NCBI GenBank assembly: GCA_021775005.1
Contig: JAJFIK010000075.1
Location: 11,086 to 75,085, forward strand
From: Rhodospirillales bacterium
GTDB taxonomy: Bacteria; Pseudomonadota; Alphaproteobacteria; JAJFIK01
Length of the DNA stretch: 64,000 bases
Direction: 5' to 3'
Below, piece after piece: positions 50,668-55,008 of this stretch. The position numbers were made by a program, and so were the translations under genes. Under the pieces are notes generated by a model, which worked only from the letters and a program-made list of their open reading frames with translations, had not been told where the DNA came from and did not search any database. Each line of letters opens with the position of its first letter. Position 1 is the stretch's first letter.

Positions 50668-51237
50668 ATGCATAGCCTTACAAGTGCCCTGGTGAAAGTT
50701 GCCCGCCTCCCCTTACTCCTGGGTCTTTTTCTTGGTGTCTCCGGATGCACCGAAGCCCCGTCTGGCATTGAGCCCGTTGCCGGTTTTGAACCGGAGCGCT
50801 ATCTCGGCCAATGGTATGAAATCGCCCGCCTTGATCATTCATTTGAGCGCGGACTTTCCAATGTCACGGCAAATTATGCGGCGCGTGACGACGGCAAAAT
50901 TGGTGTAGTCAATCGCGGCTTTGATCAAGAGACATGCATGTGGGATGAGGCCAAAGGATCTGCCCGCTTTCTCGGTTCGCGCGATGTGGGCAGCCTGGCC
51001 GTTACGTTCTTTTGGCCCTTTGCCGGGGGCTATCACATCGTTGAGCTGGACAGGGACGAATACCAATACGCATTGGTCTCTGGTCCATCTCGCGACTACC
51101 TCTGGATCCTCGCCCGCAATCCCACGTTGCCCGACGACACCGAAGCGATGCTGATTGATCGCGCGGCGAGGCTGGGGTTTCCGACGGAAGATCTGATTTT
51201 CGTGGATCACTCTGATCCTGATTGTTCGCAGTCATAA
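50668..51237 (+). CDS. blc: bacterial lipocalin Blc (outer-membrane lipoprotein)
   Basis: Lipobox LFLGVSGC and lipocalin motif ERYLGQWYEIARLD. Confidence 0.8.
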   Translation: MHSLTSALVKVARLPLLLGLFLGVSGCTEAPSGIEPVAGFEPERYLGQWYEIARLDHSFERGLSNVTANYAARDDGKIGVVNRGFDQETCMWDEAKGSARFLGSRDVGSLAVTFFWPFAGGYHIVELDRDEYQYALVSGPSRDYLWILARNPTLPDDTEAMLIDRAARLGFPTEDLIFVDHSDPDCSQS

Positions 51238-51278
51238 ATCAACACCACCACAAACCTATTCATCAAGGCATCCGCTCC

Positions 51279-52064
51279 ATGACCCGCAAACTTACTGTGC
51301 TCCCTTCAGTCTTGCTGATTGCTCAACTTGGTTTGGCCATTCCGTCCATCGCCCAGCCTCGTGAATCAGGAAACGGCAATGACCTTTCCATTTCGCTGGG
51401 GGCATTGGCTCTTTACGCGCCTTCTTACGAGGGCTCCGACGAATACGAGTTTCGCGGTTTCCCTTTGATCGATATTGAATACCGGGATCGGTTCTTTCTC
51501 GATGGCCGAAACGGCGCCGGTGTGCACCTGATCAATGAAGGTGCGGTAACGCTTTCGACTTCCATTGGCTATGCCTTTGGCCGCGATGAAGATGATTCAA
51601 GCACACTTCGCGGCATGGGTGATATTGACGGCGGGGCTCTGGCCATCGTGCAAGGCGGGCTGAAGGTGGGCATGTTCAGCGTTGACATGCGGGCACGCCA
51701 TCAATTCAGCGGTACGGGTACAGGCACATTGTTTGATCTGGGGCTAAGCACATTCCAACGCTATGACAGTGGCCTTTTCATTCGTCCAGCAGCCTCCCTG
51801 AGCTATGGAACGGATGACTACATGCAAGCCCATTTCGGCGTGACGGGGATGCAGGCGATCAGCAGCGGTTTGCCAAGTTACCTAGCCTCTTCGGGCATCA
51901 AATCTGTTGGGGCATCAGCCGTTATCGGCTATGCGCTTGACCGGAACTGGTCATTATCGGCGCGCGTTTCCTGGGATCGGTTGCTTAAGGATGCTGAAGC
52001 CAGCCCGCTTACTAACGATGCCAATCAATTCACGTTTGGCGCAGGCTTTTCTCGCAGATTTTAG
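51279..52064 (+). CDS. MipA/OmpV family outer-membrane protein
   Basis: Signal peptide, a Gly/Tyr/Asp-rich beta-barrel-like sequence and a C-terminal F (FGAGFSRRF). Confidence 0.6.
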   Translation: MTRKLTVLPSVLLIAQLGLAIPSIAQPRESGNGNDLSISLGALALYAPSYEGSDEYEFRGFPLIDIEYRDRFFLDGRNGAGVHLINEGAVTLSTSIGYAFGRDEDDSSTLRGMGDIDGGALAIVQGGLKVGMFSVDMRARHQFSGTGTGTLFDLGLSTFQRYDSGLFIRPAASLSYGTDDYMQAHFGVTGMQAISSGLPSYLASSGIKSVGASAVIGYALDRNWSLSARVSWDRLLKDAEASPLTNDANQFTFGAGFSRRF

Positions 52065-52067
52065 GGT

Positions 52068-52514
52068 TTACTTTAGTCTGACAGTACCATCTGCAAAACT
52101 AATCCCAGCCGCTGGAAATGTTCTTCTGATGCCTGCATCACGATTACACAAGAATCTAGTTATTGGTAGGGACACCGAGCCGGACGTCTTGTCGATTAGC
52201 CGATTGGTCAACTTGAGCAGGGTTGTCTTGCCGCATCTGGGGGGGGTGAGATGAACGATTGTCCCTCCATCCTCGACATTGGGCGTGATATTTCGAACGG
52301 CCCATGTCTCAGCCCCACTCGGATCAATCGCATTCATCGGATCATTACCCACATAGGCATACATGTTCATCTGATCCTCGTAGCCGATGGGGTCCGTCTG
52401 ATAGAAGCGCCCCAGGGGGCCGGAGTACATCCGCGCGCGGTAGTAATAAAGATTGGTTTCTGCGTCATAGCGCCGCCCGGTAAAGCGTAAAGAATCGCCC
52501 CCCGCATCATCCAC
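52068..52514 (-). pseudogene. orphan RHS-repeat-associated core fragment with a variable C-terminal tip
   Basis: [53 protein letters not shown] is the RHS core signature. Only 14 aa precede it and about 80 aa of lower-GC tip follow. No upstream RHS body. Confidence 0.6.
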
Positions 52515-52657
52515 CCGCCCGAAGGTGGAATAGGCAAAGGCACAAAAACCGCTTGTCAGGTGCGATTGGCGCCGCTCTTGTTTTCAAAAATCGCCGGCTT
52601 CTGGTGGAAATTGCGGATGCATGGAGACTGTGTCTCCGGTATGGACAAAAAGACTAC

Positions 52658-52675
52658 GTGGCGGAGAGACAGGGA
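52658..52675. repeat. 18-bp exact direct repeat of the tRNA-Ser 3' end (TGGCGGAGAGACAGGGAT)
   Basis: Identical to 52815..52832, which is the 3' acceptor/T-arm of tRNA-Ser. This att-like duplication lies 139 bp away. Confidence 0.6.
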
Positions 52676-52782
52676 TGTGCTCGGCTTGATAAGCCAAGCC
52701 TGCACTGCCGTTGCTAATCTCGCTGGCGCTCGAAAAGCGTCCGGTCGAACGGCGTTCAAATCCGCCCGGCCCTGCCTCATAA

Positions 52783-52812
52783 CAAAAAGCCGCCCCATGG
52801 GCGGACTTTTGT
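52783..52812. terminator. hairpin terminator downstream of tRNA-Ser (AAAAAGCCGCCCCATGGGCGGACTTTTGTT)
   Basis: Stem GCCGCCC/GGGCGG(A)C flanked by A/T runs. Bidirectional-looking. Confidence 0.55.
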
Positions 52813-52814
52813 TA

Positions 52815-52904
52815 TGGCGGAGAGACAGGGATTCGAACCCTGGGAACGCTCGCGCGCTCAACGGTTTTCGAGACCGCCCCGTTCGACCACTCCGGCATCT
52901 CTCC
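52815..52904 (-). tRNA. tRNA-Ser(CGA): tRNA-Ser (anticodon CGA), class II with a long variable arm, encoded CCA
   Basis: Hand-folded. Acceptor GGAGAGA/TCTCTCC, D-arm CCG-GAGTGGTCGAA-CGG, anticodon stem GCGGT/ACCGT with loop CTCGAAA, long variable arm, T-arm CAGGG-TTCGAAT-CCCTG, discriminator G plus CCA. Confidence 0.85.
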
Positions 52905-53009
52905 GCAGGAAGGCGTGGAGCCAAAGGGCCCGCGCCGGTGAACAGCGGCGCGGACCATAACCAGCCTCGCCCTACGGGGCAAGATGCGGGCGGGCTTGCG
53001 CGCATTATT

Positions 53010-53942
53010 CTACGAGGCGGGAGAGGCTTGCAGCCAAAGCCGTTCAGCCTCTGAATCAATGATGAAATATTGATCCGACAACAGATCACTCCCAAGAATG
53101 ATTGTTGGTGTAGTTTCCTGCCTCAGCATTTGGAATATTGAAACATCGGAGGCGGTCAACGCTTCTTCGGACCATTCCTTCGCACCCAGTGTGATCAGCC
53201 CCACCGGCAAGCTCCACGCCGCAATGGGGTCATCGGTGGCACCGCGAATAGGCTCATCTTCTGCAAGTCCTGCTGTGGTGAGATCTTCCACACCAAGGGC
53301 AGCAGCCCCGGCAGGATTAATGGTGCTGCGCCGCGCGCCGGTATCGATGACCGCATCAAAAGCCACGCCATCAATCTCAACCTGGGCCCACAAGAACAGG
53401 CCATGACGCCGCTCTGTCGAAATACCGATCCAACTGCCACCATAAGCGCTGGCAGGATCAAAGCTGCCGGCATTGCCCACAGCGGCGGCATAGATATCCA
53501 AGCGGTCTTCGCTTGCAGCAAAGCCAACTGGTTGCGCGAAAAGAACGCCAACGCCCAAAACACCGGCGATATCAGAAAAATGTTCCACATCTGGAAGTGC
53601 AATCACCGTATCAATGTCGAAGGTCCAAGTGCTGGCTTCAAGGGTACCCAAGCTCACTTGACGTGCTTCGGTAACGCCGCTGGCCCCCTGGACCATGATG
53701 CGCTCCGCACTTTCCACTTCGCTAAGGCCTGCCTCAACGGCAAAGCTGTCGAACACCATTGTGCTACCTGACGCAGAGTCAACAATGAAAGTGTAAGGCC
53801 CCTCGCCATTGACCATGAAGTCAACAAGAAAATGTCCGTCCTCGGACAATCGCGCGGGCACAGGAATGGGCGATGCCGAGACCGGTGTGCCCAGTGTCGG
53901 CAGTGCCAGAATGAAAATAAAAATTGCTAGTAGTCGTTGCAT
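53010..53942 (-). CDS. secreted pseudo-dimeric retropepsin-like (clan AA) aspartic protease
   Basis: Signal peptide. The second lobe carries VIDTGARRST (D-T-G-A). The first lobe has IVDSASGST in the homologous position. The start was chosen at MQRLLAIF; the ORF extends to 53996. Confidence 0.55.
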   Translation of the reverse strand: MQRLLAIFIFILALPTLGTPVSASPIPVPARLSEDGHFLVDFMVNGEGPYTFIVDSASGSTMVFDSFAVEAGLSEVESAERIMVQGASGVTEARQVSLGTLEASTWTFDIDTVIALPDVEHFSDIAGVLGVGVLFAQPVGFAASEDRLDIYAAAVGNAGSFDPASAYGGSWIGISTERRHGLFLWAQVEIDGVAFDAVIDTGARRSTINPAGAAALGVEDLTTAGLAEDEPIRGATDDPIAAWSLPVGLITLGAKEWSEEALTASDVSIFQMLRQETTPTIILGSDLLSDQYFIIDSEAERLWLQASPAS

Positions 53943-54021
53943 GATGGGCCTCCCTTGGTTGCTCACCATGGAGCGCCCTGAGCGGCGCAGGTTCAACTTA
54001 ACTCTGTGTCATGAACAAGAT

Positions 54022-55008
54022 TTAATCTGCGGCTGCGCTTTGTGAAGTCGTTCCTTGCTCAGCAAAGAAGTTCCCTAAAACCGAAGGGTGCCGCGCTTGC
54101 ACCCAAAGCTGCCGGCCAATGGGATCAATGACAAAATTCTGCTCCGCCAAAAAATCGGCGCCCAGGATCATGACCGGTTGATCATCTGCTTCAAACGACG
54201 CAAAAATGGGCAAATCCGCCAGCGAGATTGTGCGTGCCGCCCAGACCCGCTCGCCCAACTGCAAGGTTGAAACCGGCACAATCCAGGCTGCAACCATGTC
54301 AGGGGAAGCACTTTGAATGGGCGCGTCTTCAGTAAGCGCCACATAGGCCGGATCAATGCCCGCCGCAACAGCAGCAGCAGAGTTGATCGTTGAACGCTGC
54401 GCGCCGGTATCGATTAGGGCCGGAATTGTTACGCCATTGATGGCAACATCAATCCAGTAAAACCCTTGGCCTTCGGCAAAACCTTCACGCTCGGACATTT
54501 CAACAGCAAACCAACTTCCCTCTAGATCGGTTTCGGGATCAATCGCCTCACCGGTGCGATAAAGATGCAAACGCCCTTCGGACAAAGCAAATCCCACCGG
54601 CTGGCGGTAAAGAACGTCCGCGCCCAAAATGCCGTAGCTTGTTTCTTCAAGCGCCAGCCCGGGGCTAAAACTCAAGATATATGGCAGATCAATTTGCTCT
54701 GCGCCGATGCGAACACTGCCCAGCTCAACCACTTCGGCCGCAATGGACCCGCTGGAGGCTTGCAGCGTAATGGTACCTTCGCTCACGACCCGCTCCAGCG
54801 CCATACGGTCTGAAAGATTGTCGAATATAATTGTGCCGCTGGCGGCGCTGTCCACAATAAAGGGATAAGGCCCCTCGTCATTGACCCAGGTGTCGATAAT
54901 GAGGTGATGGTCGCTGGTGAGCCGTACCGGCACGTCAAAGGGGTCCGCGGCCAGCGCCGGAAGGCAGCCAGCTATCCCCATTGCAAGTGCGAGCAAAACG
55001 CGCGTCAT
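54022..55008 (-). CDS. secreted pseudo-dimeric retropepsin-like aspartic protease (tandem paralog)
   Basis: Paralog of the upstream gene with the same length. LIDTGAQRST in lobe 2, IVDSAASGT in lobe 1. Signal peptide MTRVLLALAMGIAGCLPALAA. Confidence 0.55.
   Translation of the reverse strand: MTRVLLALAMGIAGCLPALAADPFDVPVRLTSDHHLIIDTWVNDEGPYPFIVDSAASGTIIFDNLSDRMALERVVSEGTITLQASSGSIAAEVVELGSVRIGAEQIDLPYILSFSPGLALEETSYGILGADVLYRQPVGFALSEGRLHLYRTGEAIDPETDLEGSWFAVEMSEREGFAEGQGFYWIDVAINGVTIPALIDTGAQRSTINSAAAVAAGIDPAYVALTEDAPIQSASPDMVAAWIVPVSTLQLGERVWAARTISLADLPIFASFEADDQPVMILGADFLAEQNFVIDPIGRQLWVQARHPSVLGNFFAEQGTTSQSAAAD

Follow-up and report, generated by a model that had tools for sequence, protein, structure and literature searches.

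A probable integration scar at tRNA-Ser(CGA) beside a chimeric Rhs–ABC pseudogene in a Rhodospirillales bacterium

Architecture of the locus

The locus lies in a 64-kb stretch of DNA from a Rhodospirillales bacterium, analysed as a whole and referred to here as the window, in which ARAGORN calls a single tRNA gene, an intact tRNA-Ser(CGA). On the 5′ side of this gene begins a conserved flank, of which an aspartyl protease gene is the first member; on its 3′ side, 750 bp separate it from the stop codon of an intact gene for a MipA protein, which covers positions 1–221 of 221 of the Pfam MipA model (E = 3.6e-46). Read from the tRNA towards MipA, these 750 bp hold a 138-bp spacer with a strong predicted terminator, a second copy of the last 18 nt of the tRNA, a short trailer with a hairpin, 90 bp without a detectable homologue and a 148-amino-acid open reading frame (ORF) that joins a fragment of an Rhs protein to a fragment of an ABC ATPase (Table 1). 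The 90-bp interval, with which the variable zone starts, bears no likeness to the relatives beyond the hairpin and has no phage or plasmid match.

Table 1 Features of the locus and its immediate flanks (positions are those of the window)
Feature	Position	Strand	Basis or remark
MipA gene, intact	51222-52064	+	Pfam; convergent with the debris, left limit of the debris zone
148-aa ORF	52068-52514	-	Rhs core plus ABC fragment
OpuC/ProV-type ABC ATPase fragment, about residues 13-95	52068-52316	-	In frame; NCBIfam, PDB and HMMER matches
Rhs fragment, complete terminal RHS repeat-associated core domain	52314-52532	-	TIGR03696; ends ...NAIDPSG
90 bp without detectable homologue	52533-52622	.	Between putative ancestral hairpin and Rhs fragment; start of variable zone
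Putative ancestral tRNA trailer (CGTAGTC...) with original hairpin	52623-52658	-	Matches L158 and L155
Hairpin GGAGAC-ACA-GTCTCC	52623-52637	-	
att core copy 2, putative displaced ancestral tRNA-Ser 3′ end (attR-like, P-O-B′)	52659-52676	-	Exact 18/18 match, direct orientation
138-bp putative element remnant (P′ and P arms)	52677-52814	-	Starts TAACAAAAG, with bidirectional terminator
Predicted rho-independent terminator, strong	52790-52804 (core stem); ~52780-52814 (extended A/T-tract stem)		Bidirectional; terminator scan and fold
att core copy 1, terminal 18 nt of tRNA-Ser	52815-52832	-	
tRNA-Ser(CGA), intact	52815-52904	-	ARAGORN; Rfam RF00005 tRNA, 55 bits, E = 7e-11
Aspartyl protease gene, first of conserved right flank	53010-53996	-	Pfam; synteny in L071, L152, L155-L158

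Duplication of the tRNA 3′ end

The duplicated block comprises the last two nucleotides of the T loop, the 3′ strand of the T stem, the 3′ strand of the acceptor stem, the discriminator base and CCA; on the plus strand it reads TGGCGGAGAGACAGGGAT, the reverse complement of the tRNA-Ser 3′ end, and this 18-mer has two exact copies in the window. A preliminary description of this DNA had reported that the final 18 nt of the tRNA are exactly duplicated 139 bp downstream. The duplication stands at 18 of 18 positions, but the intervening length is 138 bp, with 156 bp from start to start. Identity breaks off sharply beyond either edge of the 18-mer, and what flanks one copy bears no relation to what flanks the other. 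Allowing up to three mismatches, we found no third copy in the 64-kb window, for which shuffles of the window give a chance expectation of 0.03 further matches, and no degenerate third att copy occurs leftward of the locus, over 52 kb, or elsewhere in the window. With two copies only, the 18-mer does not behave within the window as the dispersed repeat that had been named as a possible objection. The variable arm of the tRNA carries a compensatory change relative to its orthologue in one related metagenome contig (L155).

The same tRNA in relatives

The gene for the Obg GTPase, at a distance of 5 kb, served to reach the nearest sampled relatives (Obg identity 75–86%). They comprise L071 (GCA_025450675.1), L152 (GCA_021774965.1), L153 and L154 (both GCA_054033475.1), L158 (GCA_028280665.1), L159 and the three metagenome contigs L155, L156 and L157, which encode an identical Obg protein. 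Every relative contig that reaches far enough has the tRNA-Ser gene upstream of one or more aspartyl protease genes, rplU, rpmA, a GNAT gene and obg (the conserved order being Asp protease(s)-rplU-rpmA-GNAT-...-obg), and an orthologous tRNA-Ser(CGA) stands at this locus in L071, L152, L153 and L155–L159. Contigs of relatives from six assemblies or samples keep the tRNA together with its right flank; seven contigs of relatives, drawn from five assemblies or samples, lose synteny at the tRNA 3′ end.

The DNA 3′ of the tRNA is readable in six contigs and differs among them. L071, L153 and L156 carry a large serine recombinase with DUF2924 at this position, and the elements of L071 and L156 also include ParB/N6-methyltransferase and DUF5681 genes; in L152 a reverse transcriptase comes after a DUF6538 tyrosine integrase, which lies 115 bp from the tRNA; L155 has an SMC-like ATPase and genes of no assigned function; and L158 has two large proteins without Pfam matches. 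L155, L156 and L157 diverge right after CCA despite their identical Obg, suggesting that the site varies between very close relatives, probably members of a single species. The genes on the left flank of the window (sigma/ChrR, lipocalin and MipA) are absent from the tRNA flanks of the relatives, and no Rhs gene occurs at the tRNA-Ser locus in any relative examined. In a search of genome contigs the best MipA match had 43% identity; no tRNA-Ser was close by, and in the loci found no OpuC-type ATPase adjoins MipA. The aspartyl protease has no match in metagenome contigs, and the genome, metagenome and viral contigs searched contain neither a full-length element nor an empty site for this lineage. 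These sequence comparisons support a view in which the locus at tRNA-Ser(CGA) is a lineage-wide integration hotspot. They also bear out the decayed integration hotspot of the preliminary description to the extent that integrase- and recombinase-bearing elements sit in relatives at exactly the same tRNA; the comparison of occupancy that it had proposed found such elements, but no Rhs.

A probable ancestral tRNA end at the second copy

At the second copy the window reads CCA-CGTAGTCTTTTTGTCCATACC-GGAGAC-ACA-GTCTCC. In L158 and L155 the intact tRNA ends in CCA and, 14 nt further on, GGAGAC-N3-GTCTCC with a T-run follows. The bases that follow CCA are CGCAG in L071, L155 and L157 and CGCAT in L152, and the trailer of the second copy also resembles these CGCAG/CGCAT trailers of L071, L152 and L157. 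The trailer hairpin occurs once in the window, where 0.11 occurrences would be expected with up to one mismatch; of 161 fetched loci 3 contain it, among them L155 and L158, where it occupies the orthologous position. Because the native trailer and hairpin follow the second copy in the window, and not the intact tRNA, we take the second copy and its flank to be the ancestral 3′ end of tRNA-Ser with its trailer hairpin. Likeness of this flank to the viral contigs L114, L073 and others proved on inspection to be at chance level, and a search of metagenome contigs for the empty-site/attR junction pattern returned no match.

An apparently imported trailer

The intact tRNA is followed directly by TAACAAAAG and the predicted terminator, which is symmetric and whose region folds with z = −3.7. 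This trailer is unlike those of all the relatives compared, and on that comparison the present 3′ end of tRNA-Ser together with the TAACAAAAG-terminator segment appears as an imported sequence, B-O-P′ in att terms. No integrase remnant is detectable in the 138-bp spacer (region 52515–52815 examined), and the spacer has no second copy in the window or in phage or plasmid collections. A T-arm-like hairpin had been described in the spacer: the letters GGCG-TTCAAAT-CCGCC are present on the plus strand at about 52751–52767, but the fold of the segment does not surpass that of shuffled sequence (z = −0.71), and the segment has no match to the Rfam tRNA covariance model at E ≤ 10. We also considered TTCAAATCCGCC CGGCCCT G CC, within the spacer, as a further tRNA 3′ fragment in inverted orientation and rejected it as unsupported: it has no covariance-model match, its fold is not significant and its putative acceptor end matches none of the tRNAs in the fetched loci.

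Use of the same 18-mer as an attP core

We scanned the IMG/VR viral contigs for the exact 18-mer and found it in at least 80. Among the viral matches listed, it lies inside complete tRNA-Ser genes, with four different anticodons, in 57, and in a gene fragment in 23. The ORFs adjoining internal 18-mer fragments are tyrosine integrases (PF00589) in nine cases out of ten. Five contigs (L092, L103, L122, L126 and L143) share just 18–20 nt with the tRNA, with the same T-loop boundary as in the window; an integrase adjoins the fragment in L092, L122 and L143, and the flank in L126 is identical to that in L092. Partial tRNA-Ser 3′ ends beside PF00589 integrases thus mark this core as one used for attP by integrase-bearing elements.

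The pattern of tRNA end plus TAACAAAAG matched two 41-kb viral contigs, L162 and L163, each of which has a partial tRNA-Ser 3′ end, not called as a tRNA, followed by TAACAAAAG, a GC hairpin and CTTTTGTT, with a tyrosine integrase ending 57 bp away. The likeness of the window to these contigs in the P′ arm extends over 38 nt only, terminator included, and could be partly convergent. The P-side junction pattern is absent from the viral contigs searched, and blastn of positions 52040–52830 against phages gave no match. The displaced native trailer and the viral attP cores together support the attL/attR footprint of a tRNA-integrating element that had been proposed from the repeat.

A chimeric Rhs–ABC pseudogene

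The 148-amino-acid ORF had been described as the last part of an RHS protein with the core signature, a lower GC content, an approximately 80-residue variable tip, no upstream RHS body and no space for an immunity gene. The Rhs assignment is well founded: residues 7–67 match TIGR03696 (E = 2.5e-22), and when the frame is followed from 52583, where it is open for 171 codons, the match covers positions 1–75 of 76 (E = 1.4e-23). The called GTG start at 52514 is therefore internal to the Rhs core domain, and neither a Shine–Dalgarno sequence nor another recognisable ribosome-binding site precedes it. The Rhs part is 68% identical to Rhs C-terminal fragments, and at the DNA level it is 73% identical to plasmid Rhs core genes, the sole plasmid match of a blastn search with 52040–52830. 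It has no YD-repeat shell upstream, and no other Rhs sequence occurs in the 64-kb window, so that the absence of an RHS body holds and the ORF is not continuous with one elsewhere in the window. Space for an immunity gene is likewise lacking, since the convergent MipA stop codon (52064) lies 4 bp from that of the ORF (52068). The GC content of the ORF (0.528), by contrast with the earlier statement, lies inside the normal spread of 250-bp windows (0.552 ± 0.045).

The tip proved to be something other than a toxin. Residues ~69–117 of the ORF match the first strand, Walker A and the following helix in dozens of ABC ATPase models, the best being NCBIfam proV (6e-7), with matches at model positions ~14–65, and all PDB matches are ABC nucleotide-binding domains (NBDs). 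An exhaustive HMMER search with the 83-residue tip against 1.8 billion representatives returned 54 matches; the top matches that were inspected are all N-termini of ABC ATPases, mostly of the OpuC/ProV type (best 3e-9). One of the lower matches, P0119, is a repetitive surface protein and was set aside as spurious. The resemblance to the OpuCA/OpuBA/ProV ATPases includes a gapless alignment at 42% identity between ORF residues 67–133 and residues 13–79 of an OpuC/ProV-type protein (P0106), as well as the NRLIxxTSG helix typical of this subfamily. Unlike these ATPases, however, the fragment is truncated at both ends: its homology runs out near residue 95 of the ATPase, where the MipA stop codon lies, leaving ~83 of roughly 220 NBD residues, so that a complete NBD is missing. 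Its Walker A (GxxGxGK[ST]) is degenerate, reading TPPRCGKT across a C8 homopolymer, the Q-loop, LSGGQ signature motif and Walker B are absent, and no permease or binding-protein genes lie near the ORF.

The two parts meet in frame, within 0–3 codons of the natural boundary between Rhs core and tip, which lies at DPxGL (Poole et al. 2011, PMC3150448). Such an in-frame junction at the Rhs boundary is somewhat unexpected, mildly so, for a random deletion. Of the database proteins that match the 148-amino-acid ORF, 96 in number, every one spans the Rhs part only, and none among the billions searched has the same Rhs::ABC architecture. Orphan rhs-CT/rhsI modules, described in the same study and in Koskiniemi et al. 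2014 (PMC3967940), resemble the ORF in being 5′-truncated rhs fragments that keep the core up to the DPxG(L) boundary. In contrast to them, the ORF has a fragment of a housekeeping gene in place of a toxin domain after the boundary, reads DPSGA where they read DPxGL (the L being replaced), has no immunity gene and, within the 64-kb window, lies neither downstream of a full-length rhs gene nor in a T6SS context. From its sequence we regard the ORF as a chimeric pseudogene, neither toxin nor immunity protein, that most likely has no function. A distance of 127 bp separates the second repeat from its Rhs core domain, which is thus outside the att-bounded remnant and beyond the putative ancestral hairpin. 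We found no link between the Rhs fragment and the element behind the repeat, and the Rhs::ABC debris probably stems from earlier insertions and deletions in the variable zone.

Discussion

We consider it probable that the 750 bp from the MipA stop codon to tRNA-Ser(CGA) hold the remains of past events at a tRNA integration hotspot: an integration, a deletion and debris that is older or independent. In the integration, for which the anatomy and strong comparative evidence speak, an element with a tyrosine integrase would have recombined with the 3′ end of tRNA-Ser through the 18-bp identity block from T loop to CCA. The attP of the element would have supplied, as elements of this kind usually do, a replacement tRNA 3′ end and its own terminator (TAACAAAAG-hairpin-T run), and the original 3′ end, with native trailer and hairpin, would have been displaced to the far side of the element. 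A subsequent internal deletion, not site-specific, would then have removed integrase and cargo and left 138 bp, with the tRNA intact and now ahead of an element-derived terminator. Precise excision would leave a single core, so the presence of two cores and 138 bp points to loss of the interior by ordinary deletion; as the 138 bp hold no trace of an integrase, we infer the large element and its deletion rather than see them. The sequence of the chimeric pseudogene is plain, and by its place beyond the hairpin it may be older or independent debris, in which an Rhs terminal core that had lost its shell would have become joined in frame at ...DPSG to residues ~13–95 of an ABC ATPase, a fragment with a ruined Walker A that is itself truncated at the MipA stop.

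Elements of this general kind are well known. CIMEs, familiar from the Streptococcus ICESt1/ICESt3 literature, are cis-mobilizable, att-flanked remnants without recombination genes that sit at the fda gene. As in CIMEs, attL- and attR-like sites here flank DNA without an integrase, and by analogy their use by an incoming related element is conceivable; the locus differs in being far smaller and in having a tRNA, not the fda gene, as its target. Islands in tRNA genes have ends that are marked by a regenerated tDNA and a displaced fragment, with a tyrosine integrase inside (Islander, PMC4383910). The locus shares with these islands and prophages the intact tRNA, the displaced 3′ fragment downstream in direct orientation, the identity block from T loop to CCA and an element that supplies a new 3′ end and terminator. 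It departs from them in having 138 bp between the ends, no integrase between tDNA and fragment and no cargo; because the ends are so close and the interval shows no integrase similarity, we class it as a scar or remnant and not as an island. The core of phage mv4, 17 bp long, is identical to the 3′ end of tRNA-Ser(CGA) (bioRxiv 10.1101/2023.11.06.565760), and the Int/attP/attB system of this phage matches the locus in isoacceptor, in 3′-end sublocation and in a core of nearly equal length (17 versus 18 bp); the host, however, is Lactobacillus rather than an alphaproteobacterium, the sequences are unrelated and the locus has no integrase to compare.

Two other accounts of the repeat deserve consideration. 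The 156-bp insertion might be complete as it stands, a minimal non-autonomous cassette of attP-like core and terminator, akin to a very small CIME, that was integrated in trans through an integrase from another site. This accords with the lack of any integrase trace between the cores, with cores that are still 18/18 identical and with a spacer that holds exactly the core and the strong terminator needed for a functional tRNA, but we hold it to be unlikely: decay of islands by deletion is the commoner route, no viral contig searched has the P-side junction, and neither the window nor the phage and plasmid collections contain a second copy of the spacer. Heterobivalent integrases whose attP is known, moreover, require arm sites that extend over at least ~200 bp, as with the 234 bp of mv4 (bioRxiv 10.1101/2023.11.06.565760). 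An origin of the 18-bp repeat as a chance match, or as a by-product of local duplication or slippage, has nothing beyond the shortness of the repeat to recommend it and is already effectively refuted by the expectation of 0.03 matches with three mismatches allowed, by the unrelated flanks of the two copies, by the orthologous native trailer borne by the second copy and by the occurrence of the same block as attP core in viral contigs.

The remaining alternatives concern the ORF. According to the preliminary description, the Rhs fragment and the 18-bp repeats would be remnants of one polymorphic-toxin island at tRNA-Ser, with the ORF as an orphan Rhs-CT toxin module. We judge such an island to be conceivable but improbable. 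The Rhs core domain and the second repeat are indeed separated by 127 bp, orphan rhs-CT fragments with part of the core retained are well known (PMC3150448) and the zone varies in all relatives; yet the Rhs fragment lies outside both cores and past the hairpin taken as ancestral, no third att copy exists in the 52 kb leftward, the tip is an ABC ATPase fragment rather than a toxin, an immunity ORF is lacking, the window has no full-length rhs, and relatives carry no Rhs at the locus. It is very improbable that ORF 52068–52514 encodes a small protein that functions, with a P-loop fragment of ABC origin recruited as a new Rhs C-terminal domain. A frame open for 171 codons and an in-frame junction at the DPxG boundary, the usual exchange point of Rhs tips, would fit such a protein; the loss of more than half of the roughly 220 NBD residues, with neither signature motif nor Walker B and with TPPRCGKT as Walker A, does not, nor does the absence of an Rhs shell, PAAR, VgrG, an immunity gene and a Shine–Dalgarno sequence before the GTG, nor that of any protein of the same architecture among billions. 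The same junction allows a further reading, which we regard as a long shot, that the Rhs::ABC chimera is no random deletion product but a snapshot of Rhs loci sampling new C-terminal sequence, through recombination of a core-end fragment with some arbitrary host gene, or copying onto it, in frame and exactly at the DPxG boundary; if true, it would mean that a mechanism targets this boundary, beyond homologous recombination in the core alone.

The locus is thus best described as the scar of a tyrosine-integrase element at the T-loop/3′-end sublocation of tRNA-Ser(CGA), beside a chimeric pseudogene: an ordinary feature of a known kind, the product of ordinary genome wear, by which current understanding is unchanged. 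For annotation, it means that the 148-amino-acid ORF should be labelled neither as an Rhs toxin nor as an ABC protein. The locus is also a small and tidy case in which a terminator supplied by an element has taken the place of the native terminator of a tRNA. In poorly sampled alphaproteobacteria, tRNA-Ser(CGA) beside the aspartyl protease gene and rplU-rpmA-obg is a marker by which mobile elements can be found and delimited, those at this site including large-serine-recombinase elements and a tyrosine-integrase island with a reverse transcriptase, with possible defence cargo.

The tRNA-Ser(CGA) gene and its flanks

The block TATGGTCCGCGCCGC, about 35–45 nt 5′ of tRNA-Ser(CGA), is shared, at the same position, by the window and every relative compared (the assemblies L071, L152 and L153 and the metagenome contigs L155–L157), and the sequence flanking it has diverged. 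This block is probably the −10 element of the tRNA-Ser(CGA) promoter together with a GC-rich discriminator. Within the tRNA body, comparison of the window with the corresponding region of L155 revealed a difference in the long variable arm, which reads GAGCG...CGTTC in the window versus GTGCG...CGTAC in L071, L155 and L156. The two arms thus differ by a compensatory change from A-T to T-A, as expected if the tRNA is functional. The tRNA-Ser of L157 carries a G-to-A change in the 3′ strand of the T-stem (CCCTA, not CCCTG) that would break one T-stem pair, and the end of this tRNA may be partly supplied by an element.

On the 3′ side of the gene, the terminator hairpin extends to a 31-nt imperfect inverted repeat (74%), in the outer part of which CCCTGTCTC of tRNA-Ser pairs with GAGGCAGGG downstream of the terminator. 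The repeat could compete with folding of the acceptor and T-stem in the tRNA precursor; alternatively, it could be left over from the symmetry of an att site. Farther on, in the OpuC/ProV-type ABC fragment, a G8 homopolymer (C8 on the coding strand) falls exactly on the codons of the degenerate Walker A motif (TPPRCGKT). This tract is likely prone to slippage and belongs to the decay of the fragment.

The two tandem paralogous proteins encoded between the tRNA and rplU each have a signal-like segment at the N terminus and carry a pair of retropepsin-like Asp_protease_2 domains. Two copies are present in the window and in L071, and one in the other relatives.

Coordinates of features at the tRNA-Ser(CGA) locus in the window and in relatives
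Feature	Sequence	Positions
G8 homopolymer in ABC fragment	window	52236–52243
31-nt inverted repeat	window	52765–52829
Variable arm	window	52863–52870
Variable arm, region compared	L155	7254–7261
TATGGTCCGCGCCGC block	window	52940–52960
328-aa paralogue, first copy	window	53010–53996
328-aa paralogue, second copy	window	54022–55008
Serine-recombinase element	L071	1–3212
Serine-recombinase element	L156	3114–6944
Serine-recombinase element	L153	681–3635
Integrase island	L152	1–3416
799-aa ATPase	L155	2419–4818
Sequence 3′ of tRNA	L155	7215
Sequence 3′ of tRNA	L156	6945
Sequence 3′ of tRNA	L157	302

Elements at the tRNA-Ser site in relatives

L155, L156 and L157 have an identical Obg protein, yet three different sequences follow the tRNA CCA. 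In the L155 flank we found a SMC_N/AAA_23/AAA_21 ATPase, with neighbours of unknown kind and no recombinase in the fetched part of the contig; the ATPase may be a defence gene in a variable zone. The island at tRNA-Ser in L152 (GCA_021774965.1) begins with a 573-aa protein combining DUF6538, SAM-like and tyrosine integrase domains and also encodes a reverse transcriptase (RVT_1), upstream of which lie two small ORFs, one of them HTH-like. The reverse transcriptase and small ORFs could be retron-like or other defence cargo.

Related elements lie directly 3′ of tRNA-Ser in three relatives (L071, L156 and L153), all encoding a large serine recombinase with DUF2924 and two of the three additionally DUF5681 and a ParB_N/N6_N4 methyltransferase. 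A 23-nt end, CGCAGTCCATCGAACTCGTCTCT, immediately after the CCA is common to L071 and L157, and a diverged version occurs in L156. The tRNA-Ser trailer seems to be the target of a family of serine-recombinase elements.
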